From Botryllus schlosseri (Eukaryota): a DNA stretch of 64,000 bases. Shown here piece by piece: positions 11,280 to 64,000 of the stretch (positions are counted from its first letter, which is position 1; each line of letters starts with the position of its first letter). Position numbers and translations under genes: made by a program. The notes beneath the pieces were generated by a model. It worked only from the letters and a program-made list of their open reading frames with translations, was not told the DNA's origin and ran no database searches. The stretch is from the NCBI GenBank assembly GCA_051294905.1, contig CM119372.1:34722001-34786000 (forward strand), written 5' to 3'.

Positions 11280-11282
<3 letters not shown>

Positions 11283-11318
<36 letters not shown>
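11283..11318 (+). repeat. (AC)18 microsatellite, mirrored as (GT)18 at 18580-18615
   Basis: Counted directly; absent from the homologous position (~58065) of the diverged copy. Confidence 0.95.
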
Positions 11319-11320
<2 letters not shown>

Positions 11321-13039
11321 TCAGAGAAATTGGAAGTTTTTCCGTTGTCATTCGCTAAAGTAAATGTCATCACAATACTCTGTCACTAAAAGACGTTACT
11401 TGGACGTGCTTGAATTCTAGACATAGTTCTGATTTACCCAACACAAGACCCAAGGACAACCCTAGTTTCAACCGAACACAGATATCCAAAATATCACACA
11501 CTTCGCTATTCCTAAAGCACAAACACACGATACAAAATAATCCTTGTTGTGTTGTTGCGGCATCATCACTCAACAATATCACCCTCAATACAAATGATGT
11601 TTATGTGTAACATGCTATTGATTTGAACCACACCCACCTGACGGAAGAGGATTTACTCAATCTTTACAAAATGGATATTGACCAACATCACATCACCGGA
11701 TTGTATCTGTTTCGCTGGATACGAGTTATGTTAGTTTAACAGTAAACAAATTTCACCCTCTTGGATTATGAACTCAATGCGTTAGCAGTCATTCAATAGT
11801 TTGTTTGTGTCAACTAGTTACTTGGTATGTTACTCCACAACTCTTACAAAAGTACGAAGGATATTAACATCGCACTAAGTAATTAACTTTACTCGATATT
11901 CTCGCATTACGAAACTAAAGAATGGTTGGTTAGACTCTACAAACTGTTTCGATATCACAAGACCTTTATTGTCTGAATGGGTGTTCATGTGTCTTAAGAA
12001 CCAAATAGTTCAACACAGCACTAGTACCAACAGAAACATCAGAGTTGTTTACACAAAAGTTTGTATGTGTACAGTATGCGAATACCACGTGTAAGTCCAG
12101 CACAATTGCAGTATCCATCCGAGTTTAGTCAACACAAATTTATTACAACGGAGCCACGTAAACTTTCGTGAAAGAAAAGCATACTCACTTCCAGAGGGTT
12201 ATGTCAACACCATAGCAGTAAATCAGCTACTCCAACAACAAAGTACATATGTTTCTAGCCACGATCCTTACATCTTTCACATAGATCAATCTAGTTTGCT
12301 AACGAAAAGTGCTGAGTCACCACATGATCGACCTCACAACAAAACAACTAGTAGATATTATCATTCAAAATATTCCTAACCCTTTACACACCAGTGACAA
12401 ATCATACAACGAATATGTTTTGTGGGTCGAATTGTTGTTCAGTGTCAAGTCTACCTGTTGAAACGTACATTAAAACAGCGCAATTCAATTAAAACCACGA
12501 ATCTATTTTCATTTCCTCACAAACTGTCACATACAGAAAAATAAATTTTATTCCGCCAAAACATACTTGTAACCAATCGCTTTCATTAAACACACAACAC
12601 CATAAAAGTATTTACTTTCTACAACATAGACATTCTGATGTAGTCAAGAAATATTTTTATTAATCAAAATCATCGACTTCTGTTTACGGCGTTAGTGTGT
12701 GCATGTGGGATCCGTATTAAAATGGACACGACACGACTGAATGTAAGGAGATAGAAGTCTATCGCATAGATTTACATGTGGTCTTCGCTACGGTTTCAAA
12801 AAACGAATCATCTCTTTTGCATTGATCGAGACCGAGCAAGTTAGTTAATGGTCATGATTGTGTTTGTCATATGCGAATGATAGGGTTACTGTCAAATCTA
12901 CATACAACAACCTTCTGGCACTCATAATAGTAATTTCATTCTCTCCCTTCGTAATTGTAGACTCACGACAAGTATATTGTACAACTCGACAGCTACGTTT
13001 ACCAACACCAACGACACTAAACATACGATACCTACCCAA

Positions 13040-29013: not shown

Positions 29014-29964
29014 CAGTGGTTCTCAACCGGTGTGCCGCGAGCGATTTCTTCGGAATTTTGAAATTATGCGCAAAATAATTCTAGTCTATAGCAAACGATC
29101 AATAATCTAAATCGAGCTTGATGTGAAGTTTGTACATTTGACAAATAAAAAATGATGTTATGCCCGCAATCAATAACCCCCTCGAATTCGCTTTACCGGA
29201 CATATCGCGTGCCTTGAAGGCTGAATTCAGTTTCGCACAATACGTTGATTGATCGCAGAGAAGAGCAGACATGGCGGTGCCTGTATGACATTGACAATGC
29301 AGTTTTCTAAACCTCATTGTCTTCCCAATCACCAGCGAGAATTAAACTTATTTGGAATTGACGTTGGCGTTAACAAATTATAATTACAAACATGGCAATC
29401 AACATTGCGATCGTTAGGTATCGTGCCGGCACTTCCGTTAAGATATAGGCTTGTAGCACAACGTTGTGTTACTGTCGACGAATATGAGAATTGAGAAGTA
29501 AGGTATAGCTAAAATTATATCAGTAAATAAACCTCTTCGCCGCTGTGGTTATAATGTTGGTTTGTTGGAAGTATAATTGAACTGTGGGTGACTGCCAGTA
29601 TATCAAAATGTATATCAAAAAGACCACTTTTACTTTCGTCTGAATACGCCCCTGGCCCGAGGAAAACGACGACTTTCCATCACGGTTTAGTAAGCTATAT
29701 GAGGGACACTTTACGTACAAAAGTTTTCTTATAGAAATATGTCTATGGTGAAGTTGATTTCAAAAGAAACGAAGTACAGAAACATTTTGGATTGACTGCA
29801 GAGGTGGTCACATTAGTCAGCGTTTCTACTGGGTGCTAATAAGTATTCTGGGTAGTTTGCAGATGCCGTAAGCCAAAAAATTTCAGAACCACTGTGACGG
29901 TGTGCCGCGAACGATTTTTCTATTCCAAAGGGTGCCGCGAGGTCAAAAGGGTTGAGAACCACTG
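29014..29964. mobile_element. Non-autonomous hAT-Charlie-like element, 951 bp
   Basis: TIR CAGTGGTTCTCAACC...GGTTGAGAACCACTG; GTGCCGCGA motifs; TSD ATTTAGGC at 29006-29013 and 29965-29972. Confidence 0.92.
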
Positions 29965-31212
29965 ATTTAGGCCATAGGTATGACATTTTATCGTTTTTTT
30001 TGTGGATGCAGTAGGCCGGCCGATTACAAAGGGCTAACTTGAAAATTATCTTCACGCGATTTAGTTTTATCGGATATCTTGATTTTGATATGAGTGCATA
30101 AATATATAGAAAAACCAATCATATCAGCAATACGTCATCCTAATATCGCACGATACGGTTGGGATGCTTTTGTCAAAGGGTGGGAGCGGAGATGTTAGGC
30201 ACGGGCATTTTTTGCAAGAGATTAAGCAAATATTACGTGTAATAAACGTTAGCTCTGATGCTTTGGCAACCCAAATTATACCCCTCTGGTCATATACTTA
30301 ACGAACCGCTGGCGTTCAAGGTTTTTATAACAGCCATCGGGTACGAGCTCATACCATCTGGTTCGGGCTCGATGTACACATCCCGAATTCAAATCCACGA
30401 TTGGCAATGCCGGAAGATAATTGTATTGGGTTTTGTTTTGTTGCTTTTTGTGGCTAGTAATTCTACTGACAACGTGGCAAAGATCTTTGCTAACACTGAA
30501 TTTAGTACTGCACCCAGTAATTTACTTTAACATGAAAGTATTCAAAACCAAATCAGCCTTTATGATACGACGAGGAAATATTCTGAGGATTCAATTTTGT
30601 AGCTCTCAAATTCAGGCATATTTAGTTAATCATTTCGGCCGAAAGCTTCAAAGCATCGTTAATGTACAACGGGTTCCCTCTCAAAAGTGGTACAGTGCCT
30701 CTTACTTCGATTTCTACACGCTGTTCGCTGCAGGATACAATACCTTGTTTGGAACATTTTGTGGAAAATAACCCGAGCTAGCGTGACGGAAGTGTTTCAA
30801 CGGCGAATTGACGATGTAAAAGTACGCGCAATTGATTTTACCTGAATTATAATAAACCTCTGCATTCATGGAAACATGTTGCAAACATCGACAGTATATA
30901 TTTCGCGTGTACGTCGACGGAAGGATTCGTGATTTGACAGATTCTGTCGAATATTAATTTGCACTGAGAACTCAGGGATATGTATAGAGCTATTATTCTA
31001 CTATAACCATATTCCCCTCATATGCCCAGCGTCCCCCTTATCGCCTCTGGGCGGATCAATTAAAATTGCGTAGTATTGCTGCGATTGAGTTTGACATCAA
31101 CTAACCTACAGCCCCTGAAATGTTCCATGCGAATTTTACTTCCTCGACTTGCTATTTCAGATCGTTTCGTTACAAATACCAATAAGCATTTTTATCATTC
31201 ATATTCAATACT

Positions 31213-32927
31213 TTGAAGTTCACCAAGACCAGAATTCCCGGATGCCAGGTCTCTGTGATCTGTGACAAACATTTTGGTCAATTGAGGAGTGTCATGGAGT
31301 CGCATCGTCAACGATTTCATGATGATGGTATCAGTCATAATTGTTCAATTTGTGGGAAGGAATTTGCTCAAGAGGGTCTCCTCACGGCTCATACCAATAT
31401 TCATCATTGGTGCGACATATGTGGAAAAACCTTGTCTACAAAAAGCAATTTGAAGTTGCACAGGAATAGACATGCTGGTGTCCAAAAAAATCAAAAGACT
31501 TATAAATGTGGTGTTTGCGATAAAAAGTTTCCTTTGCGATTTGACTTTAAGATGCATATGAATGTTCACTTGGGAGCTGAAAATTATGACGTTTGTGGCA
31601 AGACATTCTCCTTGAAAAGTTACCTGAAGCGGCACATAGATAGACATACTGGAGTTAAAGTCAAATGCGATATATGTGGAAAGGAGTTTTCTACGGCATA
31701 CCACTGGAAGACGCATATGGCTATACATTCGGGTGCTGGGAAACATAAATGCACTATTTGCGGGAGAGACTATTCTTGCAAATCCTACTAGAAGACCCAT
31801 ATGGTACTGCATACTGGAGTCAAACATTATAACTGTGATATTTGTGGGAAAGGTTTTTCATGGAAATACCACCTGGAGAGGCATATCAAACATGTACATG
31901 ATGGTGTTAAAAACCATAAATGCCAAATTTGCGGTATACGGTTTTCTTTCAAGTGCAACTTGAAGAATCATTTGGATGTACATGCTGGTGTCAAAGCTCA
32001 CAAATGCGATGTCTGTGGAAAGACATTCGCGAGAAAGCACTATGTCAAGTCTCATATGAAGAGCCATAATACGGAGAAAATCCACGGATGCGAAATTTGT
32101 GGAAAGGATTTTTCATCCAAAGAACACCTCCAGATTCACATTAAAAGTCATAGTGCAGATAAAAGTCACAAATGTGACATTTGTGGCAAGGAATTTCATC
32201 TAAAGAATAACCTGAAGACTCACGTAAATATTCATAGCGGTGTTAAAGATCATCAATGTGAGAAATTTGTGGAAAAGAATTTATTCAGAAAATTAACCTC
32301 AAGACTCACATGAATATTCATATTGGCGATAAAAATTATAGATGTGATATTTGTGGAATGGAATTCGCTGCGAAGCACAACCTCAAGAACCACGTGGCTC
32401 TTCATAGTGGCGTTAAAAATCATCAATGTGACATCTGCGCGAAACAATTCGCTACTCGTCAAGTTCTGAAAACTCATTTGAATATTCATAATGATGTGAA
32501 AAATTATAAATGTTACATTTGTGGAAAAGAATACGGTTGAAAATTTTGCCTTACAAGTCATATGAAAATTCACAGTGACGATAAAAATCATGAATGTGCG
32601 ATCTGCGGTAGAAAATACCGTCATAAGTGCGCCTTGAAGACTCATATGAATATTCATTACGGTCTTAAGGAACATAAGTGTGATGTATGTGGGAAGGAGT
32701 TCTCAAAAAAGACTAACCTCCTTACTCATTGCAAAATTCATATTGGTGCAAAAGATTATAAATGTGAGGTTTGTGGAAATGAATTCACTCAAAAGTCAAA
32801 TCTCAATAAGCACACACACATTCACAGTGGGGAAAAGAATCATCAATGTCAAATCTGTGGGATGAAATTTACTCAGAAGAACACCCTCGATACTCACTTA
32901 ATAAGTCATAGTCGAGGAAACAGTTAG
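31213..32927 (+). pseudogene. Tandem C2H2 zinc-finger array (~20 fingers), disrupted
   Basis: Repeated C-x2-C-x12-H-x3-H with [TS]G[VE]K-type linkers; in-frame TAG at 31789-31791, +2 frameshift near 32260, in-frame TGA at 32538-32540, one finger lacking its first Cys; candidate splice acceptor at 31160. Confidence 0.9.
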
Positions 32928-36235: not shown

Positions 36236-37723
36236 CAGTGGTTCCCAACCTTTTTGTCTTCATTCCCCACTTCAGATTTATTCCGAGCCTTCATTCTCCA
36301 CTAGGACCGTAACAGCACTTCGTCAGCCCCGCCCAAAACCCGTTGATCTTGGGCCCCCAGAGGGTGATAAACCCAAAGCTAAAGCCCCCCAGAACCTTCT
36401 CAACCCCGCTGAGCCTGTATGTTTTTTCCCCGCTACTTATTAGCTACATTGGGTCTACTGTTTAGTGCGTCGCCTTACTTGGACTAAACGCGCGAAGCGC
36501 GAAAAATTTATATATTTCGTGTTTGAATCGGTCAATATGATTGGGAAGTGCATCTTTTTTGTGATCAATTTTTTATCCCCTCTCTGCTCACGTAATCAGA
36601 TTTACCGGTAGAGCTGAGTGAGGTGTGTTGGAAAAGGTAGGACCACTAAATATGAATTAAATATCTCGGGCGGACCCGTTGGTATATTGACGTCCGTACA
36701 TTATGCTATTTTGTGACCTCCTATCTGCTATGTCAAAAGATATGGAAATCGCCAAAACTAAAAGGCGCAAACGATTTCAAATTGGTATTGCTTTACTGGC
36801 AAATAATTTTTCCCTGCGGGATGGCATTTGCCCTGTGGGGTTCAGATCGCCAGGACAGGAACATTTGGCGCCAGCCATTTAGCCGCCTATGGACAATTAA
36901 ACATATATGTATATTGTATCGAAGTTTCCGGTCACCACAAGGCTATTCCTTCTCGGCCAAGCTCTTCTCGCTGCTGATCGTTCTGGCACACTTCTCGGAG
37001 TTGCATGTTACATGGCCTATAACTTAATATGCCTTGGTGCGTCGTGGCGCAGTAATGGCAGATGCCGAAGTTTCCATTTCTATATATTCTACTTATTTTC
37101 GTGGGGTAAGGGTACCCAATAATCGGATATTCGGCAATATTGAATCGCGCCACCAGCGCGAAAATTTTTTGAAAAAGTGGCATAAATTTCCAAAAAAATT
37201 ACTTTAACTTATGTTAATTCACGAAATAACTTTTGGCCTCTTCGAACTCACCCCCCCCCAATCGGGGGGTTTGGGGTGCGACAGTTACGGTCCTCTTCCC
37301 CAATACCCAGCACTATTGTCATCACAGACCAGCTATCTGCTGGCTTGACTACACAAGACACACAACCACACCAAAACGCAATACAATCGCCTATAACTGC
37401 AACATAAAACGTATTGTGAACCGATACCAGTAACGCTTAAAATTTCGCGAAAGCGTTATTTCACGTCAAACTAGTCGTGCTGGATGCGTTTGTGACGCCA
37501 TGATTGGCCATCCAGAGTTAAAAATGAAGTTTTGTGAATAACACGCAGTATAATTTTCGATGCATACATTCCAGAGCAGTTAACTGGTAACGGTAATTGC
37601 GCATGCGTCTCCGTGAATATGTAGACTGTCCTGTACATAATTTTGAACGAATGCGTCTATTCCCCACCAGAAACCATTGAATTCCCCACCAGTGGGGAAT
37701 TCCCCACCGTTTGGGAACCACTG
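36236..37723 (-). mobile_element. Uninterrupted 1488-bp copy of the hAT element that hosts the Polinton-like insertion
   Basis: TIR CAGTGGTTCCCAA; TSD GCTTAAGC at 36228-36235 and 37724-37731; reverse complement matches 6438-7696 joined to 22208-22437. Confidence 0.94.
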
Positions 37724-38294
37724 GCTTAAGCTAATATGTTTTTCCGAGAGGCGTGTGTTAGTGGGTTAGGTAAGATCGGTTAATCATATTTCGGAATTCG
37801 AATATTGACTAGTTATCAACGTTATCGCTAAATGGTAAATTCATACACGCTGAGCGTTTCCAACTGACAATGCGGCGATGTAGTTTCCTCCGTATTGTGA
37901 GAAATCAAGGTTAATTAGGTTATTGTTCCTCTGAATGTACTGCCCCAGTAGTAAAAAACTATCACACGCACCGCAGGCGAGAAAAATGAAATCGCGCGCT
38001 CACATTTTGACCCGTCGAGTCTTACAGGATGCCGAGGCGGCGTACTTACCGAAACCTGAAATGACTACATGAGATAACTCGTTCAGACGCCAAACGCCGC
38101 GCTGCAGCTGAGATTACGTGGCGTTTGGTAGGGCGAAAGGTAGGGATGTGTGAACCTCTGAAAGGTTCAGGTTCGTGTGAACGCGAACCTTTTTGCAAGG
38201 TTCTGTGTGAACGCGATAGTGAACCTCAAGATGTCATGTGACGTCATATTGCTAATTCCAAATCTAGATTTCAGTGAAGTGATAGCCTATTATA

Positions 38295-40185
38295 CAGTGG
38301 CGGCTCGTCCTATAGGGCAACTGGGGCATTGCCCCACCTAAAATTCTGTTCAATAACAATTCTTTACCATTTATAGACGCACACCTATCTATATAAACCG
38401 AAATCACAGCGAAAATCGTATACTTCTTGTCCTTTCGCTTGTAAATGCCCATATATAGCGAAGTCTATGCGAAAATCAAATTATCTTCTGTGTTTTCGCT
38501 TTGCGAATGCCTAGCCGGGGCTTGCCCCGGTAGCGCTCATAACAAGCTTTCACTGTCTATTCTCTCAAAACCGCGCATAATAAAGAAACGGTGATTTACT
38601 CTCTCCTATTCATAAAATTACCGAGCAACCGGGGCACGATAGCTCTGTGCCCTTAAGGTGTGATGTAACAATCGTATCTATAGCTGAACTCTGTTACCGT
38701 CATATGCGTTTAGTCGACCTTTGTTGGTATAGGTCGATTTTAATGGGGTTTCACACCATGAAAACTCTTGAAACTTGTTATGTCATGTCGTGATGGTGGT
38801 ATTTAACACTGCCCCAAGTTTCAGGGTTTCTACTTAAAGTTTAGGGTAGTAATTCCGTTTCCGAAGTTGAGTGTGTGCTGATCCGTCATGTATCGCAAAC
38901 AGATTTTACTCAAAAGCCGGTATTGGTATCCATTGGTTTTGACGGTGTTCAATACTGAGATCGGTTATGACATTTGGCACGGTAAGTCTTAATGTTAGTA
39001 TCGAACGCTGTACCAAGTTTTAAGTTTGTCACTGAACTGTGTTAGTGGTAATTTCGTTTCCTAATTCGAGTGAGAGCTGACTCGTCATTTATCGCTAACA
39101 GATTATACGCAAAGCCGGTATTGGTCTCTATTGATTTTAACGATGCTCCTTACCTAGATCCGTCATAAGCTTTTGCACGGTATGTCTTGATTTTAGTATC
39201 GAACGCTGTGCCAAGTCTCAAGGTTGACACTCAATGATTAGGGCAGTAATTTCGTTATCAAGGTCGAGTATGGTAAAGATGTGCTCCGATCTGACACTTT
39301 AGCCTACAACACATTGCGGATTTCACGCAAAAGCCGGTGTATCTGCGGTAACGTTAAGTGAGATGATGATATCATTCTCAGTTTGCATTCAAATATTTAC
39401 TTTGATCGTATATTCTCCAATGTCAATTTCACCGTGAAATTGTGGCCTTCAAGCCATTTGCGTACAACCCCTCGTCACTTGATCAGCCTATTCCTCAGTA
39501 AATTTTACGCAAAATTCGGTGTTGGTCTGTTCGCATTAATTTTGACAGTGTACCATACCGAAAAGGGCCATGAGGCCACTTCTCGATAATGTCATGTAAC
39601 AGTGTACCAAGATTAAGGCTTTCATCCACGTATTTATTCGGTAATATATTTTTCAAAGGCGATTTCGCAGCAGACCTATAAGACAGTAATAAAAACGTAT
39701 GTGTCGTGTTACAGTCTCCAGTTTCAAGGCCAAAATCTCTTATGCTGTACCGAGACCAAATTTCCGAGGCTGCTATTCTTAGTCCTTTACAATGATGTTT
39801 TGGATTCAATAGGACAGGCCCAATCTATGAGATAACAATTGCGTATCTGTCCGAATTCGTTTACCTTTTTAATTAGGCTTACGCTATCTCTCGAGTTATA
39901 GTCATTTCCATTTCTGCAGATAATTAGTCAGGTCTAATGCGAACATGAACCGTGTTGAATCTTTGTTCCGTACGCCGTTTACGCAGTTACCACACTTCAA
40001 GTCACAGCTCACCAGCGGACCTCTCGTGGCATATACGTTAAAATCACTGTTGCCGGGAAATTCATGTTACCGTACCATCATTAAGTTACTTGTTTACGTT
40101 GGAAAACGCCATTGTGACGTCATCTTGATAAAAAGTCGCTTGCAGCCCTTGCCCCACCACCCGATATTGTCACGAGCCGCCACTG
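38295..40185 (+). mobile_element. 1.9-kb non-autonomous hAT-type element, copy 1, with internal ~200-bp degenerate repeats
   Basis: TIR CAGTGGCGGCTCGT...ACGAGCCGCCACTG; TSD CTATTATA at 38287-38294 and 40186-40193. Confidence 0.93.
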
Positions 40186-41361
40186 CTATTATATTAATGT
40201 ACAATTGTACACGATACCTAGCGACGATTACGACCACATCATGTCACAATGCTGCGGTATATATCGACGTTTTAAACGTCGCCATATGTATCAACTGGGG
40301 CCATCTAATGATATAATATTCCCATAAAATCAATATCTTCTGTCGTTTTGCCAACAATTTCGACGAGGACTTGCAAGGGAATATAAGCTTCGTCTCAACG
40401 GTCTGGGCCAGACCGGACAATATGTTCAGCGTCTGAGTATTGTAACGTTGATATTGAGCAGAGTGTATAACGGGGTTCTATACTTGCTACCGATATTACC
40501 CCATTACCAAGTTACAGCAGTAGCCAACACCCCAATCGCACGGATTTGGTTTTTATAATACAATAAACATATGAAATCAAGATTGGCCAGTACGCCTGGT
40601 AGATTTTTTTACATCAGACAAGGATATCAATTTCATTGATTGGTTGAATAAGCATCATTCTCCGACTACCTACACGAAGTGTATTTCGCTCTTGATGTTG
40701 TGTGATTGCGGGTCAAGTTCACAGCAGAGATTCACTACATATTCGAGCAACGTTTGTAACAAAACACGTAAACTTTTGAGGTTGTCAAGGTGAATGCTCG
40801 CTTAGTGTTGATTTTTTGATGCTGCCAGCGCCATGCATATAGTGCATATGCACAAAAGTTGAGTAAAGCCAAAAATTTTCATCACGCTTCACGCGCAGTG
40901 GATACGAAATGACCTGTATGATTTCACGCAAGTATCGGTGAACTTAATTTAGGTCGCGGGTTGGCTTGGTTCCGTTTACACCAATGGTTCTCAACCGCCG
41001 GTCCGCGACGACATTCCTGCCGGTCCGCGAGGTATATTACAATTTTATACTTCAATTTCAAGATGTAATGTCGAAGGCTGGTCCATTGATAGAATAAATA
41101 AAACATAAAATTTTAAAATGATTCAAAAATTCGTGAGGTAACATTAAACCGGAAACCGGAAACCGGATACTCTGCATTAGAAACCTAGCATTGTCGTGAT
41201 TCCCGATCTGTGATCGTGCTTACACACGATGCGTGAAAGATGAGTCGTATAAATATTGCATGGGAATGCATAATATATGTTATGATTAGTGACTGGTATG
41301 TATATCGCGTTAGAGAGGCGCTACATCAGCTACGCTTTCATTCGGTTAAGGGTGTAAACAG

Positions 41362-42325
41362 CAGTGTAGGAATCAAGTCACTACCTTCGAGTCACGAGTC
41401 ATTTCGAGTCATTGCACATTTTGACTCGAGTCAAGTCAAGTCAATCGATTTTTGAAGGTGACTCGAGTCAAGTCAAGTCACTCGATTTTTGGAGATGACT
41501 CGAGTCAAGTCGAGTCAAGTCAAGTCAAGTCACGAGTCAAGTCAAAATTCAAGTCAAGTTGCCTTTTCGAAGTATAAAGCATGGTTACGTCATTATATTT
41601 CGCCAGCTGTCTGAATTACAAATTAATTGGTCATTGATTCTGAACCGACGAACGAATATAGAGTTAAATATACATGCAATAAGGGGCTGTATCGCTTACA
41701 TATGCGTAGAACTGCTAAACTGCGTAATTGCATAGCCTCAGTTAATAGTTACCAGCCAAAATAAATAATAAAGAAACGAATTGATAAGATGCAATACATT
41801 ACCCATTTATACATATTGATATGATACAATTCGTGTCTGCGCCAATGGTTGAGGAATATATAAACTCTATTCGATTTTAATTTCAAAATAAAATAAAAGG
41901 TTCGGTTAAGGTAAGAACAGCAAGAGATATTTTGGTATTAAACTACTCGACTACTAGTTTACGACAACGTAAGCTGTAAGCTTCGATCGCTTCGTTTGTG
42001 GTCAATATATTTGTTGGAGAATAATGTAGGCTCAGTAAAACACACGATCATTGAATGATTGGTCGCTCTCACGAGTTACGCCAGCGTTTGACGAGCAATC
42101 CGAACATGCAAGATACAGTGATTTTTATCGTCACCGAATGCTTGATGACTTGAAATTGACTCGTGAATTTTGCTCCGAGTCACGAGTCAATCCATATTTT
42201 TGATACGCCGAGTCAAGTCAAGTCAAGTCATTTTACCAAAGTGACTCGAGTCAAGTCAAGTCATACCAAAAAGTTGACTCGAGTCTGACTCGAGTCAAGT
42301 CATGACTCGAGTCATCCCAACACTG
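41362..42325. mobile_element. 964-bp hAT-type MITE with GACTCGAGTCAAGTC subterminal repeats
   Basis: CAGTGT...ACACTG ends; TSD GTAAACAG at 41354-41361 and 42326-42333. Confidence 0.9.
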
Positions 42326-49802: not shown

Positions 49803-52057
49803 GTCTAGACACGCAAAACCGGTACATATTATTTGTGACGACACGCTATTTTTTGTTGCAGGTAATTAGGCGCGATCGGTAGATGAATTGTGAATGCCGT
49901 AGTTACCGGCCGTGCAGCGAGTTTGGGTTTAAAATCTAAACACCGTCCGTTTAAAGTGCCACTCTATCTCCAGTCTTAATTGCAATGGTTCTTAACCGGC
50001 ATTCCATGTAACATTAGGGGTTCGCCGAACCAGTCTCCAGGTTCTCTGGAGGTGAAGACATACACACTTAACTCATGTATGTGATTTGTGATGATACTCC
50101 CATTTTGGCCATCATTGGTTGCAGAAATTTAGACCTTTTGAGTGATTTTTATTCAAGTATGTACATAAAATATCAATAATTTCATAAAGAAAATCTTTCC
50201 CTTTCATCGGGTCATCTCGTCTCAGCCGTCGCCGAATTTAGACCAGACCAGTATATAGTCGAATTGCGACTGTTGCTGTGGTACGGCGTGTGTAACGGCA
50301 ATGGGGAGACGTGGAGCTCGAAATCGAACAAGGTGAAACCCCGCATTTTGAACTGATAACTGAACGAGAACAGCCGATTCATGAAAAGTGATGCATTGTT
50401 GGTCATAAGCATCCCAAATTTCGAGGTGAGGCTATCAAAGTTACGTCGGCATTTCATTTTCTTGCTGATCACCAGTTTCAAAAATTACCCGAGGACAGCT
50501 CAAAACCTTCCCGCGAGCCAAATGTGACGCGCGGGTCACGGGTGGGCCGTCCGTGCCCTAAGCATCCCACAGTCTCCGATAGTGTTTCCACAGACATCAA
50601 TGTCGGACAAATCTTATCATGGATACAATCATATTTGTGTAATGCAAAGGTCGACACGTTTTCATGATCAAGCCAAATTGTAGTACCGACTTTTCTGCGG
50701 GTTTCTCTTATTGGCTTGTTGGAGAAGCCCAACGAAATATCCTCGCTGCAAGAAATTCAACAAATATTACGAAGATCGCGCGCTCTGGTGCTGTCGCGAC
50801 CCAAAACTATACCCTTCTCGACTCATGACTAGGTCGTGAACCACACTGTAGGAACCCCTGTCATACAGCGATCATAATTGGTTGCATGCTAAATTATCTT
50901 TACTACGTAGTCATCAATTTCTTAGTTTTCTCTTTTCAACCACAGTTAAATGCTTTACCGTTTGTGATGTGCTAAATAGTGAAGTAACTGCGTGATTGTA
51001 GTAGCTTCCGAGATCTAGAACAAACGAGTACTTGTCAAAATTTGATTTTGTGAAGCCATGTTTTGCAGAATCTCGTGAAGCTGATGAGGTACTCAATACT
51101 TTCATCGAGTGGAAGCACTCGGCCGCGATAATGACGAAGAAGACATCGCGTGATACTGCATTATTGATGATGATCATGAACTTGTAATATAGGCATTGTC
51201 GTATAGAGATCTCAATATTTTGAATTCCCTAATTAAGCATTGAGCTTCCAACCATTTGCAGCATATTTACGTACCGCTAGATTCTTTCATTGCATAACTC
51301 TCAACTTCTCCATAAGACAAGAAAAATTAGTATTTAATACATAACGGTAGGTAGAAAATGCAGGGTACAGCTATGGTCTATTTACAGGGGTGGTCACTTA
51401 CGAAGTAGGTGATCCTTTTCGGAATTTACTCAAGTAGGTTTTATCTACTTGCAATACTCAGTCAAGTATTTATATGTTTTCGGACTACTTCAACTTCTAC
51501 TACTTACTATACTTAGTTTATATACCTTGACTTTTAAAAAGTAGAAAGTAGTTTTGGACTCTTTTTGTATCACTTTGCCTATCTTGCAATGTCGACAGCA
51601 GCACATTTCCGATTTACTGCGACGCCTCCACCTAATCTATTTTCACAGAACTAGTAATAATAATTTCCTGCTAGTAGTTCACGACTAGAAAACAGATGGA
51701 AACCATCGATGCGTACGATACAAAAGAGTCCCGCATTAAAAGATAATACAGAGGAACAGTTTCAGTGACATCTACATGTACCTGACAGGATCGATGGCCT
51801 GTTTTGTAATGAATCCTACTTTCTTGAACTGCTCCGCGAAGAACTGGTTGTCAGCACCTTCTCTGTGTCATATATCCCAATATAAAAACGTACCATACTA
51901 ACATTAAAACTGCATTATTTTGTAGATGAATGAGTCGTGGGTCGCGAGACGTTAATAAAACTCAGATTTCGGTCGCTTTCTAAAAAGTGTGAGGGCCACT
52001 CCATTACATTCATTTAGCTCTTAACTTCGTAGCAAAACGTCGTGGAAGTGTATCCAA

Positions 52058-53972
52058 CAGTGGCGGCTCGTCCTATAGGGCAACTGGGGCATTGCCCCAC
52101 CTAAAATTCTGTTCAATAACAATTCTTTACCATTTATAGACGCACACCAATCTATATATACTGAAATCACAGCGAAAATCGCATTCTTCTTGTCCTTTCG
52201 CTTGTAAATGCCCATATATATCGAAGTCTCTGCGAAAATCGAATTCTCTTCTGTGTTTTCGCTTTGCGAATGCCTAGCCGGGGCATGCCCCGGTAGCGCT
52301 CATAACAAGCTTTCACTGTCTATTCTCTCAAAGCCGCGCACAATAAAGAAACTGTGATTTACTCTCTCCTATTCATAAAATTACCGAGCAACCGGGCACG
52401 ATAGCTCTGTGCCCCTAAGGTGTGATGTAACAATCGTATCTATAGCTGAACTCGGTTACCGTCATATGCGTTTAGTCAACCTTTGCTGGTATAGGTCGAT
52501 TTTGATGGTGTTTCACACCATGAAAACTCTTGAAACTTGGTATGTCATGTCGTGATGGTGGTATTTAACACTGCCCCAAGTTTCAGGGTTTCTACTTAAA
52601 GTTTAGGGTAGTAATTCCGTTTCCGAAGTTGAGTGTGTGCTGATCCGTCATGTATCGCAAACAGATTTTACTCAAAAGCCGGTATTGTTATCCATTGATT
52701 TTGACGATGTTCAATACTGAGATCGGTTATGACATTTGGCACGGTAAGTCTTAATGTTAGTATCGAAGGCTGTACCAAGTTTTAAGTTTGTCAGTGAACT
52801 GTGTTAGTGGTAATTTCGTTTCCTAATTCAAGTGAGAGCTGACTCGTCATTTATCGCTAACAGATTATGCGCAAAGCCGGTATTGGTCTGTATTGATTTT
52901 AACGATGCTCCTTACCTAGATCAGTCATAAGCTTTTGCACGGTATGTCTTGATTTTAGTATCGAACGCTGTGCCAAGTCTCAAGGTTGACACTCAATGAT
53001 TAGGGCAGTAATTTCGTTATCAAGGTCGAGTATGGTAAAGATGTGCTCCGATCTGACACTTTAGCCTACAACGCATTGCGGATTGACGCAACAGCCGGTG
53101 TATCTGCGCGGTAACGTTAACTGAGATGATGATATCATTCTCAGTTTGCATTCAAATATTTACTTTAATATTATATTCTCTAATGCCAATTTCACCGTGA
53201 AATTGTGGCCTTCAAGCCATTTGCTTACAACCCCCTGTCAAACGCGATAGCTATTTAGTTTTCGATGGCGGCTAACAGCTGATCACTTGATCAGCCTATT
53301 CCTCAGTAAATTTTACGCAAAATTCGGTGTTGGTCTGTTCGCATTAATTTTGACAGTGTACCATACCGGAAAGGGCCATGAGGCCACTTCTCGATGATGT
53401 CATGTAACAGTGTACTAAGTTTAAGGCTTTCATCCACGTATTAATTCGGTAATATATTTTCCAAAGGCTATTTCGCAGCAGACCTATAGACAGTAATAAA
53501 GCCGTATGTGTCGTGTTACAGTCTCCAGTTTCAAGGCCAAAATCTCCTATGCTGTACCAAGACCGAATTTCCGAGGCTGCTATTCTTAGTTCTTAAGAAT
53601 GATGTTTTGGATTCAATATGACAGGCCCAATCTGTGAGATAACAATTGCGTATCTGTCCGAACTCGTTGACCTTTCCAATTAGGCTTATGCTATCTCTCG
53701 AGTTATAGTCATTTCCAGGTCTAGTGCGAACATGAACCGTGTTGAATATTTGTTCCGTACGCCGTTTACGCAGTTACCACACTTCAAGTCACAGCCCACC
53801 GGCGGACCTCTCGTGACACATACGTTAAAATCACTGTAGCCGGCAAATTCATGTTATCGTACCATCATTAAGTTACTTGTTTACGTTGGAAAACGCCATT
53901 GTGACGTCATCTTGATAAAAAGTCGCTTGCAGCCCTTGCCCCACCACCCGATATTGTCACGAGCCGCCACTG
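52058..53972 (+). mobile_element. 1.9-kb non-autonomous hAT-type element, copy 2
   Basis: Same TIRs and highly similar interior to 38295-40185; different TSD GTATCCAA at 52050-52057 and 53973-53980. Confidence 0.93.
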
Positions 53973-56900
53973 GTATCCAAAGACTACGTGAGCAAATATT
54001 ATTATTTTAGCATCAAAAAGCTGGTGAAGTAGATTGATTATACAAACAATACTACGTGAGTAAGTAAAACTAGTAGATAACTCTGCTTGAGTACTACGGA
54101 AAAGTACTTCTTTAATGATGAACTCTAAATTTCAGGAGGGCGGTTAACATATGCCGAGCATGATAAGGGGAGGGGGGAGTGCTTGGATGCAGCTGGTCTA
54201 ACCGGATTTTAAAAATGATATTACTGTTACCTCATATTTGATAAATTTGTGTTTATTTAAATCTCTCTTTTATGCTCGTAATTGTGCCCTTGACTCTTGA
54301 CAAGACGCAGACTAATAGTCGTCGAGTTATGTATATTTTACTGCAATGATTGTAGATTGCGCAACATAGTGCAATTCATTCCATTTCTACACTTTAGTGT
54401 CTAAAATGCACTTAAGTGATCACTATTGGCGCATATTCACTTTCGGAAGTATATCTTTTCTGAGACAAAATAAGTAGGCTAATGATAACTCATAGAAGTC
54501 GATGTTTATGCACTTACGCATAATGTACCTCGATTTGGCCCTCCATAGCAATTCAGAAGGTGTATTTAATTGCGGCGATTATATATCGGCGTACTATTCT
54601 GAGATATAATATTGATCATCGACAGCAAATGTATTTTACGGATAGTTGGTATTACTATATATATGAGGAAATCCGTCGATGTATTTGTATGAAGTTCTGA
54701 AATAGGGTAGCATTATAGGCAACTGAAGGTCGAAATGGTGGCTACCAATGTTTTGGATATTTCGACATCGCGGATGGCACCAAACGAAACGCTTTATCGG
54801 TTTGAGTAAGTATTCCATTTACATATGTTTCGACTCGTCAGCCCCGTTAGTAGTATAGTAGATCGCTCGTGATGTGGCAGGGGTTCTTATGGGTGCGGCG
54901 GTGACGCGCCTGGAAACTCGTGGTGGTGATGCGCCTTTTTAGACCCCCCTCTCGGCGGTGATGCGCCATGTGTTCTTATGGGTGCGGTCGTGATTCGCAC
55001 TTTCAGGTATAGGCCGTGGCGGTGATGCGCCTGGAAACTCGTGGTGGTGATGCGCTTTTTTAGACCCCCCTCTCGGCGGTGATGCGCCATGTGTTCTTAT
55101 GGGTGCGGTCGGGATTCGCCCTTTCGGGTATAGCTCGTGGCGGTGATTCGCCGTGAAAACCCGTGGTGGTGATTCGCCTTTTTTGATATAGGCTGCGGTG
55201 GTGATTCGCCTCTCATGTATTCTTACGGAGTCTCTAGTGATGCGCCATGTGTTCTTATGGGTGCGGTCTTGATTCGCCTTTTCGGGTATAGGCCGCGGTG
55301 AAGATTCGCCGTGAAAACTCGTGGTGGTGATTCGTCTTTTTTGGTATAGGCTGCGGTGGTGATTCGCCTGTCATGTATTCTCACGTTATTCTTATGGATA
55401 CGGCGATGATTCGTACTTTCGGGTATAGACCGCGGCGACACGGTAGCTGATATAGACGCGACATGATAGCGTTACAGGTATAGGGATCGCTCACACGGTT
55501 CTACATGAAGACATCGTAGTTTAGTCGTGACAAATGACCGATCGTGTTCTAACTCAAGTCTTTGCGCTGTGCGATTTTGAAAAACAGATGTTGGTGGTTG
55601 CGTTTTGACATGTGTGACACAATAAAATCGTTCGTTTCGCTAAACCGGAAATTCACTAAACCGCAGTGCATTGTGCGATTTTGAAAAACAGATGTTTGCG
55701 CTTGCGTTTTGATATGTGTGACCCACTAAATACGTCCGTTTTGGAAACGCGGCCTGCTCAAGTCTTTTACGGCGATTCGAATACCAACAATAGCCGCGTT
55801 CACATACTAACACTCCAAAAAGGTGTGAAATATTTGTAAAATCCTACGATCGCTCAGAAGATAACACATCAGAATACCCATCCCTCGTGGTTTGATGTTA
55901 CAAAGGTAGGAATTACGCACAAGTAATATTTTGGTAATTAGTTTGTCACGGAGCCGGCGTAGACGGCGATTCCAATACCAACAATAGCCGCGTTCGCAAA
56001 CCAACACTTCAAAAAGGTGTGAAATAGGTTGCAAACCCCGCGCTCGCTGACAAGATAACACCTCAGACATAGCGATCACTCGCGATTTTCTGATACATAC
56101 ATGCCGATCGTTCACAATGTAATATTTTGGTAATCAGTATGTCACAGAACTGGAATTCGCCGGTAAGATTTAATAAGTAACGAATAACCGAACCGTCGCA
56201 GACGGTGATTCGAATACCGACAAATTCTCACTTATTTCTGATCGAACCCTAATCCTTTGCGAAGTTGGCGCTTATTCGAAAAGGTGTGAAATAATTGTAA
56301 AACCCTACGTCGCTGACAGGATAATGCGTCAGACATAGTGATCCAGTTATAGCACGATGTCGGAATCCATTCGCGAGACGTTCTATAGGTACATTGATGT
56401 AATCCGAAGCGAAATATTTTGACTTTGAGGTAGTGTGAATTGAAATAGGATTGACAAACATGACTACATTTTTCCCCCAGCGCCATTTCGATATTATACG
56501 CACATTGATTTGAAACAAGTAATGAAACATTACAACTCTTCGCGATCCGGCTTTCCGTTTGTCAAAGAGACATTTTAATATCTTACCACCCTCAAAATAA
56601 TTATTCGCAACAACATTCACAAGTGTTAAATCGATTTTGCCTTACTTGATTATATCACTACAACTCGCAAACTTAAATTAATTCATCCTGGTTGTATTCA
56701 TATGACGATAATTTTTATTCAACTGTAAAAGTCGTTACTAATCTATAACACAAAGTAATTACTATACTCGGTGCATATACGACTTGACATAAACATATTG
56801 TATTTTGAGTATACGAGATTTGAATGTCTGAACAATAACTGAGAATTAAATAATCACAAGTGAGTCCATATATTACAGCGTAAAAGATATTGGAATGTCA

Positions 56901-58743
56901 GCAACTCTTTACGGTCATAGTTACAACCACATTAACTAATCTACCCAGGCAACACGTCATGATCATTCCTGAAATCAACACGTACGCAGCCACTGACTTG
57001 AGTTAAACACAAAACGGCATCGAGTTTTAAATCCGCTTGCAGCTGACGGACTATTCGAATGCATCGATGGAGAATATTATTGAACACGTCGGTATTGTTA
57101 CTTCAATAAATTTTCGCTTACACCGACTGCGAAAGTTAATATCGAATGGCAAGACTTGATCACATATTTGTTGAACACAGACATGACAAAACACATTACC
57201 GAGGTTTTATAAACTAGTCATATTACTCTACACATCTATCAATATCAGAATGCGAGCCATCAAACTTTTTGTTAAATGTAACATTGCACTTTTGGAATCG
57301 GATTCGTTATAGTCATACAAATTGTATTAAACCCAACACCAAAACGAAAGGACTTTTTAGTTCATTGAAATCAAATCATTCGTCTTCGACTTGTGCTTTA
57401 TTAGATTGCACGCAACAATTCGTTACGAATGAGCTGTAACCAAAGTTAAGAAATCTTTGTGTCCCCAGATATAGAAGATGAATCTACCTAACACAATCAC
57501 GAATCGCTGTTTCAAGTATTTCACAGATGTAATAAACTTGTTAGTGTCGCCTATCTAAAAGTATGCATGCGTTCGATTTCCATACCGACTGTTGCGATGT
57601 TTAGGATTCGCTTACAATGAACAAGAGTGAGGATTTACCATCAATGTCGTTACTGTCTGTATTCGCAACAGAGAATTGAAACATTACACGGTGTGAAAAT
57701 ATCTCTTTGATATCATAGCATTATCCCAATGTACACGATTAATACTCAACTCCGTTCACACTTTCTATAGAACGTGCTAAATGTAAAATATCGCGAGGTT
57801 ACACTTTCAGACTTTGATCATTACAAAAGTAAATTGGGATATGTTTGCTAGACGCATCCAATTCAACTAGAAATGTCTAGTACACAACGCTCGTAATATA
57901 TTGTTGTTCGTTTGTAGTATTGATTGAAATTGTTTTAGAACCCTCAAATAATAATTCTCGTCATGAAACCGAGTCGCTGAAAGTCGTTACCATCACAAAG
58001 AAACAATTTGAACGATGTTTGCCAAATGTATCCTATAGTTAGGTGTACTAGAATTATTTGTGTAACACATACACCGACAATGCAATCGAAAATTTTTCCG
58101 TTGTCATTCGCTTAAGTAAATGTCATCACAATACTCTGTCACTAAAAGACGTTACTTGTATGTGATTGAATCCCTAACAATTACCTCAATAAACCGAACT
58201 CCAAAGAAAGTTTACTCACTCGACGGATATGAAACAGCGTCGCTTAATCAGTCTATATCGTTTTTTTAAAGGTAAATCATATCCATCCAATAGAAAACAA
58301 TTTTCACTAGCTTGGTAATCAAACCGAAGAGTGGGTCTTCATTCAATATTTTGTTTGTGTCAAATACTTTGCAATAAACACACTGGATTGGTTGAGCTTT
58401 ACATCATCAGGCTGTCATCTGTAAATCAAGCTTACATCCGATTTGTAACTGTATTGTTTACCTAACCGAGTTGTATGCAGAGTTTGATATTTTTGATATA
58501 TTGATACTGTTACTCCATTGATCGGTATTCTCGAGCGGGTCGATTTTCAAACGAGTAAAATTTATTACTTGAGTTGTTCTGCTTACTATATTTAAATGTA
58601 AACTCACCCGTCTTTCAAAACCACAACAAACAATGATAAAAAAGTATGCAATCAAACACAACAAGTTTTACTGTAGGACACTAATTATTATCCCACATAA
58701 CTCATTTCTTACCGATGGCATATGAAATATATTCATGTTACAC

Positions 58744-59205
58744 TAGGCTTACCATACGTCCTCTTTTAAGATGATTCGTCCTCTTTTTTGACTTTTTTGA
58801 AAGTGTCCTCGGAGGACGCCCTTTTGTCCTCTTTTTTGAGATTTTGTCCTCTTTTTTGAAAATTTAGGTCAGATTTAGTGGAAATTGCGAGTGATATGCC
58901 GCAAATTAGCGCAGAAGTGAAGCTCCGGCGGGTATTTCGGAGGGAAAAGTGGTGATTTCAGCTCTGAGCGAAAAGAAGACCTTTTTTTTTTTTTTTTTTT
59001 TTTTTTAGTCATCCACCTAGCAATGTGGAGTGTAAAACGTGTTTTTGAGCTCTGAGCGGAAGTGATGACCTTTTTTTTTTTTTTAGTCAACTGATCATGA
59101 AGCGGGTGAAATTTACCTGTTTTTGAGAATTCTTCTCCAGTTTTGCTTGTTTGAAATTTCTGAAAAAGTATCCTCTTTTTTCATTTCCGAAATATGGTAA
59201 GCCTA
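58744..59205. mobile_element. 462-bp hAT-type MITE with GTCCTCTTTT repeats (related fragment at ~35920-36030)
   Basis: TIR TAGGCTTACCATA...TATGGTAAGCCTA; TSD TGTTACAC at 58736-58743 and 59206-59213. Confidence 0.92.
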
Positions 59206-60024
59206 TGTTACACGAAAATACTCGATATTCCCATGCTACAAACCTGTACAATGATTGGCGGGGCTTTCAAACTGTTTCGATACCTCAAGAACTTTATTGT
59301 CCGAATGGTTGTTCGTGTATCTTAATAATCAAATAGTTCAACACAGAACTAGTACGAACAGAAACATCAGAGTTGTTTACACAAAGTTTGTATGTGTACA
59401 GTATGCGAATACCATGTGTAAGTCCAGCACAATTGCAGTATCTATCCGAGTGTAGTTAACACAAATCTATTACAACGAACCACGTAAACTTTCGTGAAAG
59501 AAAAGCATACTCACTTCCCGAGGGTTCTGTCAATTTCATAGCAATAAATCAGCTACTCCAACAACAGAGTACATATGTTTTCTAGTCACGGCCCTTACAT
59601 CTTTCACACAGATCAATCTACTTTGCTAACGAAAAGTGCTGAGTCATCGCATGCTTGTCCTCACAACAAAACAACCAGTAGATGGAGCTGTATTAAAATT
59701 TTCCTAACCCTTTGCACACCAGCGACAAATTGTTTAGTGAATCGAGTTGTTGTTCAGCGTCAAGTCTCCATGTTGAAGCGTACATTAAAACAGTGCAATC
59801 ACAAGACAATAAAACCACGGATCTATTTTCATTTCCTCACAAACTGTCACATACAGAAAAATAAATTATATTTTCCCAAAACATACTTGTAACCAATCGC
59901 TTTCATTAAACACACAACACCATAAAAGTATTTACTTTCTACAACATAGACATTCCGATGTAGTCAAGAAATATTTTTATTAATCAAAATCATCGACTTC
60001 TGTTTACGGTGTTAGTGTGTGCAT

Positions 60025-61603
60025 CAGAGTTGGATCAATTGTAATTTGTAATTGTAATTGAATGTATTTAATTACATTTTTCAATGTAATTGTAATTTAA
60101 TTCTAATTGAGGCATTTTTATTTTGTGTAATTGTAATTGTAATTGTAATTTGAAAAAAATTTTGCTCAATTACAATTTCAATTACATTAAGTTGTTATTG
60201 AGACCTGACAAGCACAACATAAAAGAATTGAATTATAATGCGTTCTCTTTAAATGTCGACAAGGAATTTGGTGGATCCATTCGCGGAAGCCCTGGACTGC
60301 GCCCATGCGGGCGAAGTTTTTTCTATATTTTTACCGCTATGCTGGCCTCGGCTGCCATTGTATACAATTTTTAGATTACTAACCAACGGATGGATTCGCA
60401 ACACGTGACTCACGATTGAATACGGCGAGAAGCGAACTGCTGAACGGGCTAAAAGCAGCAGAATTTATAGTACCATAGCTGGCGATCCAAGCGTCGAAAT
60501 TTGATATGTAAGGTCCTAATCGAAAGCTAGTGTCGCACTGATTCCGCAATAAAAGTATATTTCCAGGCAATGGTACCATCCCAAAATAGTCATGAAAGTC
60601 TGGGAATCGGCATTGTTCTGAACAATCGCTGGGCGTAATTGGTAATTGTTGTGGTCATGCTGCTGCAGCGCTCTCACTTTTCAGAACAGTCGGCCTTAAA
60701 CGGCTATTTTGGAGCAGTTACATTGCCCTGACGAGATTTTATTTTGTATTTTCGGAATTAGTACATCAATAGCTTACGATAAAGACCAGATGCATCAAAT
60801 TTTGACGCATGGATCGCCAGCTCTAGGACTACAAAGTTTGCTGCTTTTAGCCGGCTCTGCAGTACGTTTGTCGGTGCATTCATCCGTGACTCACATCTTG
60901 CGCATCTATCCGTGGGTTGGCAATCTACAATACGATTTCAGATCACGATGCTGCATCGTTACTTCGTCTGGCTAACTAACCAGACCATTGGATATTATAT
61001 AACGTCTTATCTGACAAAGCACGGTTTTGTTTTTACTCCTCATCCTAATTCCTACGTCCCTCGATAAAAATAATATTATTTCTTTAATTATATACTATAT
61101 ACGCAAATCCCACACGTGCATATATTATAATACTTTTTCAACGACATACTGCACCCTATCCTTAATCCTAACCCATAGGAAATTAGGTAAATAACATTTT
61201 ACATTCCAATTACGTGAGCCATAATTACCGAGCATGCAACACACGCTTATATCATGTCACAATGACATCTTAAATAGCATACCATGTAGTATGTACGGCG
61301 TACGCACATAAACGCATTTATTACTACACAATCTGAACTAGACTTGAATTGTTGTTAAATACGACGCTACGGTTGTCAAGAAGCACGGTAGAATTTATGA
61401 TTATTCAATTAAATGTTCAACAGCAGCAATTGTAATTGTAATTGTAATGTAATTGAAGCATGCAAGGAGTAATTAAAATTGTAATTGTAATTTGATATTT
61501 TTAGCATGGAGTAATTGTAATTGTAATGTAATTGAAACATGCATGAAAGTAATTGTAATTGTAATTGTAATTGAACTGAAATAATGTAATTGATCCAACT
61601 CTG
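60025..61603. mobile_element. 1579-bp non-autonomous hAT-type element with (GTAATT)n subterminal repeats
   Basis: TIR CAGAGTTGGATCAATT...AATTGATCCAACTCTG; TSD GTGTGCAT at 60017-60024 and 61604-61611; empty site at ~12697-12704. Confidence 0.93.
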
Positions 61604-63819
61604 GTGTGCATGTCATACATGTGGGACCCGTATTAAAATGGACACGACACGACTGAATGTAAGGAGATAGAAGTCTATCGCATAGATTTACGTGTGGTCT
61701 TCGCTACGGTTTCAAAGAACGAATCATCTCTTTCGCATTGATCGAGACAGAACAAGTTAGTTACATGTATTCACGGTCATGATTGTGTTTGTCATATGTG
61801 AATGATAGGGTTACTGTCAAATCTACATACAACAACCTTCTGGCACTCATAATAGCAATTTCATTCTCTCCCTTCGTAATTGTATATTCACGACAAGTAT
61901 ATTGTACAACTCGACAGCTACGTTTAACAAGACCAACGAAACCGAACCCACGACGTTTACCTATGTGAAATTACCACTTTCACTTGGTTGTCCGTCGTTT
62001 AACTGAGTAAACATATCATTTTCCTTTGGAGATCTGACGTTTACCTAGACTAAGAAACCATTTTCACTTGGAAATATATTTTTCCCTCAGCAACAAACCA
62101 TTTTCACTTGGAAATATATTTTTTCCCTCAGCAACAAACCATTTTCACTTGGCGGTCCGTCGTTTACCTGAGTAAAAACATCACTTGCCTTTAGAGATCT
62201 ATCGTTTACCCAGAGTAACAATACAATTTGACTTTGGGTTCAATCCTTTCCTAGAGTAACAAAACCCTTTTCGTTTGCAAATCTATTTTTTTTCCTACAG
62301 CAACAAACCATTTTCACTTGGAAAAATACTTTTACCTAGAGTAACTAATTATTTTCTTTTGGAAATATATTTTCTCCCTGGGTAACAAACCTTTTTCGTT
62401 TGGAAAACTATCATTTACCTGAGTACCAATACCGTTTTCACTTGGAAATCTATCTTTTCCCTGGGTAACAATACCATTTTCGTTTTGAAAACTGAAAACC
62501 ACACCCGATATTTTGATATTTTTGTATATTGTTACAACGGACAGTGACAAAATACACACCAACAACGACTCCGATACATTTGTGTAATCGCATATTCACT
62601 TGTGCTGGTGCATCCCATCAAAATCATCGGTTACCCACATGCAATGTGCTCTTGTATATCGAAATGCATGTTTTGGAAATTGGACAATAGGTTTCGACAT
62701 GTCCGCGATGTCCGGGTTCGTGCTTTGGATTTTCCAGAGTCAAAATGTCTGAATAAAACACCTCCTCGACGATGGTTGGTACGTGGATAATGGTGTTCGG
62801 AAAACGGTTGGATTTATGTCACCCATCGCGATAACAATTCCAGGTCGAGTTTTCCCCCGCATGTTTACTATATTGTGTCTTTATTGGTCAATGTATGTCT
62901 CAACAATGTCGACATGACAGTACGGGCCCTATTATCCAGTCCATATACAATTCAGACTGTCATTGAATTCGTATTGGCTACCCGATTAATCTAATTATTT
63001 GCGGATATATTATTTTCGACGTGGTCTGGTGCACAAGACCTTAGTAGTTAAGCACCATTAACCCCACATACAACAACAACAATATATGATCCGCACTGCT
63101 GCAAAATAAGTTTAACTTATATAGCACTTCATATTAAACTACAGTCGACCTTGTTATTCATAATTGCTAGTGGTTACTATGAAATCACAGCAGGCATGGT
63201 GAGTTGAGTGAAACGAGATATTTACAATCTCGCAAAAATATATGTTCACCTACATTCAAATTTTCGTTTGAAAATATTTCAATGCTAGTTATAACTAGGC
63301 TATATAAAAACGTCAATTAGAATTACCCCCCAAATATTGGTAAATTACCCCTTTGGGGGTAATTACCCCAGGTTAAGAACCGCTGGATTAGAGCATACGT
63401 TGCCATAGTAGAAGTAGTAGTAGATTAATAGCAACGTATCTGTGTTTCTTAGTCGGCTAGCAAACATTGCGCAGTGCTCACCTTTACCAACCCTCATAAA
63501 TAATTTAAATCGAATTATTATCGTTTATGCGTTCATGTTCTCACGGATTGGTAGTGTATGGTACCATATAAATTTGCTTAAATTTCTCAAGGCTTCGTAT
63601 TCGCTCCTCTATTTTAGCTGATAATAACAGACTGTGGCATGTAACTATATACAGTTTCTCACTTATTTCATTGGCAGTTCTAGGTGTTTCTGTGCGATAC
63701 AACGCCTTTTTGCATGCATATTTACCTTTATATTCGTGATTTGGTTAAAAATAAATGGCTAATTATTCTGTCATTCACGCAGCTGACAAAATGTTATGAC
63801 TTTGAAGCATCACTCATAC

Positions 63820-64000
63820 TTCGAAAATTCAATTTGACTTGAATTGCGACTTGACTCGTGACTTGACTTGACTTGACTCGACTTGACTCGAGTCACCTCC
63901 AAAAATCGAGTGACTTGACTTGACTCGAGTCACCTTCGAAAATCGATTGACTTGACTTGACTCGAGTCAAAATCTGCAATGACTCGAGATGACTCGTGAC
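63820..64000 (-). mobile_element. Partial inverted copy of the 41362-42325 MITE family, running off the window end
   Basis: Reverse complement matches ~41390-41570 (GACTTGACTCGAGTCA repeats). Confidence 0.85.

Follow-up and report, generated by a model that had tools for sequence, protein, structure and literature searches.

How a 14.5-kb element, 94% of which is a palindrome, came to lie within a hAT-type MITE, and whether it arrived there as one unit, is the question raised by the window, i.e. the whole stretch of 64,000 nucleotides from Botryllus schlosseri that was analysed. Palindromes of several kilobases with perfect arms are normally unstable, and they are often discounted as artefacts of long-read sequencing.

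Empty target site and element boundaries

An uninterrupted hAT copy in the same window served as reference for the insertion site. The two hAT copies and the junctions are defined by the following features:

36236-37723, minus strand: intact sister, a hAT-type non-autonomous element of 1,488 bp with TIR CAGTGGTTCCCAA and 8-bp duplication GCTTAAGC
36466-36471, minus strand: single empty GACGCA target in the intact sister, read from the sequence
6438-7696, plus strand: left part of the interrupted hAT copy, with the 8-bp duplication TCATAACG outside
22208-22437, plus strand: right part of the interrupted hAT copy, terminating in its own TIR
7691-7696, plus strand: left GACGCA of the 6-bp target duplication, adjoining the AGTAGTATAGTAG start of the insert
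22202-22207, plus strand: right GACGCA of the 6-bp target duplication, adjoining the CTACTATACTACT end of the insert

The host MITE is an ordinary element. Its copies carry 8-bp target-site duplications (TSDs; TCATAACG and GCTTAAGC), CAGTG termini and a short TIR of the YARNG type. This is in line with the 8-bp TSD and YARNG termini given for hAT elements in PMC3014272 (Table 1), where one anole family has the TIR CAGTGGTTCCCAACCT. The host shares the CAGTGGTTCCCAA-type TIR, the 8-bp TSD and the lack of a transposase ORF with the non-autonomous hAT MITEs described in that source, and no notable difference from them was observed. The duplications of the interrupted copy (TCATAACG) and the intact sister (GCTTAAGC) are each 8 bp long and differ in sequence. 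The sister has a separate 8-bp duplication; it is a paralogue and not the orthologous empty allele.

On the minus strand, positions 36453-36480 of the sister read AAGTAAGGC-GACGCA-CTAAACAGTAGAC and contain one GACGCA, as stated in a preliminary description of this locus. The same description placed GACGCA on both sides of the 14.5-kb element in the interrupted copy, where we located it at 7691-7696 and 22202-22207. In the alignment to the sister, the left half (6438-7696) differs by 62 substitutions over 1257 columns plus three 1-base indels, and the right half (22202-22437) by 9 substitutions over 236 columns with 0 indels. Pooled over both halves, 71 of 1,493 columns (4.8%) are substituted, with the GACGCA 6-mer entering the column counts of both halves. 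The three indels lie ~760 bases away from the junction and the closest substitutions are found at 7681 and 22236. When the reverse complement of 36236-37723 was aligned to 6438-7696 joined with 22208-22437, no indel beyond the 6-bp duplication was present at the junction, and retaining both GACGCA 6-mers produced exactly one 6-base gap. A weak DNA stem-loop is predicted within 36440-36510 (minus strand; -7.0 kcal/mol for the stretch), and the empty 6-mer belongs to its 3' side.

The insert spans 7697-22201 (14,505 bp), beginning with AGTAGTATAGTAG and ending with CTACTATACTACT. It displays the (AGT)2//(ACT)2 termini as well as the 6-bp target duplication of Maverick/Polinton elements (GACGCA on both sides, single in the sister). 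The sister alignment and register shifts uphold the earlier statement that these boundaries are fixed to the base: shifting them by -6 to +6 gave no alternative duplication of more than 2 bases. At window composition, the chance of a 6-base match at the junction is p ~3.1e-4. The window has 14 AGTAGT and 12 ACTACT sites, of which 7697/22201 is the sole pair accompanied by a 6-bp duplication. The remaining sites were tried as element ends and formed no element.

Mirror symmetry reaches 0 bases into the flanks. The hAT host runs on without mirroring on either side, which rules out a simple fold-back chimera as well as a chromosomal inverted duplication. The preliminary description had drawn two claims from the empty site, namely that it speaks against such origins and that the palindrome was inserted as one unit. 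What stands is that flank-mirroring forms are excluded and that the outer ends were joined in one event. The target duplication is blind to the interior, and an interior fold-back that leaves by an ordinary TIR survives this argument: the left TIR is the reverse complement of the right TIR, so an assembly folding back inside an ordinary element can exit to the right with the TSD kept. Local conversion to a palindrome after insertion would likewise keep the target duplication. The probable arrival of the palindrome as one unit rests on evidence other than the empty site. The empty site is ordinary evidence, equivalent to routine boundary validation, but it anchors an unusual element. Further, PCR genotyping of the locus could draw on its unique-flank junctions and on the empty site as reference.

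Arms, loop and a second family member

The interior of the insert and a related element in the window comprise the following parts:

7697-14496, plus strand: left arm, 6,800 bp, starting with AGTAGTATAGTAG
14486-14496: 11-bp dyad GACTC-T-GAGTC at the left arm/loop boundary
14497-15401: loop, 905 bp, not self-complementary and multi-copy in public runs
15401-15413: 13-bp dyad TGACTC-A-GAGTCA at the right arm/loop boundary
15402-22201, minus strand: right arm, exact reverse complement of the left arm, ending with CTACTATACTACT
54849-62905, plus strand: diverged second family member, starting with AGTAGTATAGTAG and collinear with arm positions 7697-14182

Comparison of the two arms showed 0 mismatches over 6,800 bases. 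Arm divergence is therefore below 0.044% at 95%, ~1/100 of the divergence between the host copies. Unless equalisation of the arms is ongoing, this makes the insertion much more recent than the hAT copies. Perfect arm identity could also be partly an assembly effect. The left arm contains subterminal degenerate 32/123-bp repeats and a 41-42-bp array at 13042-13760. The two dyads lie exactly at the arm/loop boundaries and could represent a turning or resolution site.

The second copy tracks the arm to 14182/62905, 314 bases before the loop; it has several insertions and no right end within the window. Over four aligned segments, 295 substitutions separate it from the arm in 3,187 columns. The indels between the two window copies are mostly not multiples of 3 (39 of 45), and the spacing of substitutions lacks a codon period. 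Judged from this pattern, most of the arm has been evolving as non-coding DNA for a long time. As a consequence, the evidence for Maverick descent consists of the end motif and the TSD. The second copy also contains a ~1.6-kb insertion (60024-61618) with AATTGT-repeat inverted ends and a palindromic 560-bp element inside (60369-60930).

Coding content

The longest stop-to-stop frame within the element is 214 aa long. A Pfam search of all six frames of 8300-15402, with X at stops, returned 0 families, a result which strongly decayed remnants could escape. None of the Maverick core genes (pPolB, retroviral-like integrase, ATPase, protease, capsid) was detected by Pfam in this region. Two open frames were characterized:

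8664-9305, minus strand: 213-aa open frame, predicted tandem OB-fold, RPA/SSB-like, with a mirror copy at 20593-21234 on the plus strand
14878-15141, minus strand: loop ORF of 87 aa in which family variants favour third positions

The features of the 213-aa frame are similar to those of RPA-type OB-fold clusters. Its structural model was built from 3 sequences and has a pLDDT of 54.9, so the OB-fold assignment is one of fold class only. The model matches the tandem OB folds of RPA70, HIN and Teb1 (best E 1.8e-6, TM ~0.4), with a weaker match to viral SSBs, e.g. LEF-3. On the basis of the modelled fold, the protein may bind ssDNA. Relatives retrieved in protein searches were limited to P0004 (97%) and P0005 (25%, E 1.4e-4), and the A1 profile had no significant match among PDB sequences. 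Pattern matches for the OB-fold protein led to confirmed loci in 0 of 147 cases in viral_contigs and 0 of 118 in metagenome_contigs, and phage records gave no match. The terminal pattern of the element had 0 matches in both metagenome_contigs and viral_contigs. The second copy in the window is without the OB-fold ORF, with unrelated sequence (~55430-56364) at the ORF's place in the arm, and the gene is therefore not needed by every lineage.

In case of the 87-aa loop ORF, synonymous third-position changes make up 7 of the 11 family variants listed (p=0.04, in a small selected sample taken from the best-supported 40 of 85 places). Homologue searches with this ORF found none. A plus-strand loop ORF of 93 aa (15020-15301) was rejected as a gene given its synonymous share of 1 in 7 listed variants and weak Atlas recognition. 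We also rejected a PIF1-like helicase remnant at ~9400-10600, presumed from motifs: it had no Pfam support, a best E of 0.36 among PDB sequences and no codon signal between the copies.

Arm and loop sequences in public runs

Part of 13780-15401 is present in 20 of 24 listed runs from 9 studies, and no RNA run is listed among them. Four of the 24 runs (X1, X4, X12 and X24) were compared with 13780-15446, and X24 was then left out as its 50 reads included 49 that lie only partly on the stretch. The contigs on 13780-15446 numbered 34,845 for X1, 2,144 for X4 and 158 for X12, with depth in 30 of 30 bins, which indicates that arm and loop are both repeated. Public runs and the second window copy thus define a multi-copy family sharing arm and loop.

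The ratio of mean summed depth between 12 arm bins and 15 loop bins was 4.3 for X1, 2.1 for X4 and 2.8 for X12 (three boundary bins excluded; summed contig depth is not copy number). In all three runs alike, depth drops at the 14452-14507 bin. No depth step would be expected at the arm/loop boundary from an ordinary element whose interior is unique. Relatives having the same arm but another loop would push the ratio up as well. X1 may come from the same sample as the assembly. X12, labelled as another organism (organism B), also contains arm and loop sequence and shows the depth step, which a related species, a mixture or the labelling may explain. In X1, 14531 is joined to 14480 near the arm/loop boundary at a depth of 132.6; this could reflect a differently folded relative or a small duplication.

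Of the summed depth, no more than 2.3% in X1 and no more than 0.2% in X4 supports the letters that the window has at 14034 and 14350, yet both arms carry them. From these rare letters on both arms it follows that the two arms changed in concert, which favours templating of one arm by the other over majority polishing. One X4 contig (15316-15413; 7 other letters, ~92% alike) runs from the loop into the first 12 right-arm letters. These 12 crossing letters are themselves a short dyad, and the contig is the sole fold-crossing piece among the matches listed. None bridging the fold at 15401/15402 by at least 31 letters was present among the matches listed (which comprise 24 of the 37,187 pieces and 22 of the 547 loose ends).

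Comparison with known elements

According to PMC8097293, (AGT)2//(ACT)2 ends with a perfect 6-bp TSD are the commonest signature of vertebrate Mavericks, Maverick/Polinton termini being (AGT)2//(ACT)2 or (AG)3//(CT)3, and intact vertebrate copies measure 12.7-24.6 kb with TIRs of 46-1,447 bp. With the autonomous elements described there, our element shares the termini, the perfect 6-bp TSD, the presence of TIRs and a length within this range. It differs in its TIRs of 6,800 bp compared with 46-1,447 bp, and none of the eight core genes was detected. In place of TIRs of tens to ~1,500-2,000 bp around a unique coding interior, it consists of 6,800-bp arms around a 905-bp interior, and the pPolB, integrase, ATPase, protease and capsid genes of autonomous Mavericks were not found. 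By core genes and TIR length, the element falls outside autonomous Mavericks.

The nearest precedent in the literature covered is the butterfly polintons (10.1101/2025.02.07.637071), which have ~2-kb gene-bearing TIRs and include mobile forms without polB. Expanded TIRs that duplicate genes and mobility despite core-gene loss are common to both. However, butterfly polintons keep capsid, protease and other core genes, whereas the TIRs described here are >3x longer and contain no core gene. A likeness also exists to snap-back/copy-back defective viral genomes as outlined in PMC13506859: near whole-length palindromes, one terminus present twice and helper dependence. Such genomes are mainly known from negative-strand RNA viruses and are transient and non-integrated according to the same source. 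Unlike them, the element is integrated and heritable and has a 905-bp loop and ORFs. Considered as a candidate helper-genome end, the arm has a terminal motif that fits and is non-coding between the window copies.

In an anole survey (PMC3014272), non-autonomous Polintons were looked for without success. No whole-element palindromic Maverick was found in the literature covered, with Repbase, most subscription literature and supplements outside this scope, and no whole-element palindrome is described in the accessible parts of PMC9863843, PMC6431247, 10.1101/2024.01.15.575659 and 10.64898/2026.07.28.741278.

Origin of the palindrome

We consider it likely that the element is a recent copy of a Maverick-type satellite that is non-autonomous and pre-folded, its arms being made equal as it propagates. 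This is based on the 6-bp duplication, the empty sister site and the (AGT)2//(ACT)2 ends, on the 0 arm differences in 6,800 bases compared with 71 of 1,493 between the host MITE copies, and on the combination of no Pfam family in 8300-15402 with arm and loop copies in many runs. Arrival in the folded state is suggested by the multi-copy loop, by the depth step at the arm/loop boundary in three studies and by the second copy, which stays with the arm until 314 bases from the loop.

It is improbable that the element is instead a giant foldback transposon, moved in a cut-and-paste manner by another DDE transposase, with coincidental or inherited Maverick-like ends and no protein-primed replication. 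Such an origin would explain why neither a Maverick gene nor a remnant was found, and the layout does resemble that of the Foldback transposons Tetris, FB and sea-urchin TU, which according to PMC4079207 are non-autonomous and carry tandem repeats inside long TIRs that flank a middle domain. However, the Foldback transposons in that source, with a suggested place in the Mutator superfamily, have TSDs of 8-10 bp and TIRs of up to 1,735 bp, both values being those given for Tetris, whereas the element has a 6-bp TSD, 6.8-kb arms and AGTAGT ends, the latter common to the second copy. The rare alleles on both arms are also unexplained by cut-and-paste alone.

Still less probable is an ordinary TIR-bounded Maverick derivative that was made palindromic in place, by template switch or gene conversion of the right half, with the TSD kept. 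The empty site is blind to such an interior change, and a recent local event predicts both 0 arm differences and rare alleles on both arms. Yet a fold specific to this locus would leave no family-wide step, whereas the loop is multi-copy, the depth step occurs at the same boundary in three studies and the ~92%-alike contig passes from the loop into the first 12 arm letters.

The least probable explanation is an assembly artefact, either a fold-back or amplification chimera within a longer element that exits by the true right TIR or imperfect arms equalised by consensus calling: exactly 0 differences in 6,800 bases, the artificial palindromes which amplification and missed adaptors can give in long reads (PMC6218980) and the lack of a piece bridging the fold by at least 31 letters among the matches listed would all fit, but the depth step is also seen in X4 and X12 (two further samples and studies), multi-mapped polishing would favour majority alleles where both arms carry rare ones, and the 905-bp loop is unrelated in sequence and has a codon-biased ORF of its own. 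A weaker form of this explanation, in which the arms were homogenised by a locus-specific long-read consensus, stays compatible with the data.

For the pre-folded Maverick-type satellite, the following course of events can be envisaged. The ancestor may have formed in the manner of a snap-back defective genome, with the polymerase turning on the nascent strand and doubling one terminus. During propagation, the displaced single strand would fold on itself over 6.8 kb, so that one arm could template or correct the other, and the OB-fold protein may handle this strand. Such correction would leave the arms without differences when the element inserts, even as its lineage diverges from the rest of the family. 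With inverted repeats making up 94% of its length, the molecule would fold almost fully and present a duplex terminus like that of its helper, and integrase and protein-primed polymerase would be supplied in trans by an autonomous Maverick. The already hairpin-shaped palindrome would then have integrated recently into the older hAT MITE through a concerted two-end reaction with a 6-bp staggered cut. A related cycle has been modelled for Polintons, in which the excised single strand forms a racket, is copied by pPolB and then integrates (cited from a secondary account, PMC4196379); this single-stranded racket model came from sequence analysis.

More tentatively, the element could be a heritable, integrating snap-back satellite of a Maverick/Polinton virus, replicating as a self-annealed 7-kb hairpin in which arm is rebuilt from arm in each cycle, turning at the boundary dyad, with polymerase and integrase provided in trans, while the element itself encodes a single-strand-binding protein and a small loop protein under selection. 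If this holds, arm divergence would be reset at each insertion. A high-copy, recently inserting palindrome family with Maverick ends would constitute a satellite class for Polintons and would offer a natural test of the single-stranded racket replication model.

Other features of the window

Several further repeats and one gene-like array were noted. Another hAT-type MITE at 29014-29964 has CAGTGGTTCTCAA ends and a perfect 8-bp duplication, ATTTAGGC. Short palindromic MITE-like elements lie at 23068-23687 and 2103-2554, and related repeats with AGTCA/TGACTCGAGTCA arrays at 41391-42314 and 63671-64000. A C2H2 zinc-finger array on the plus strand (31186-32927) is split into several frames by stops and a frame change. 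Finally, 38294-40189 and 52057-53976 form a direct repeat pair that is 92.7% identical, each member having a 198-bp tandem unit.
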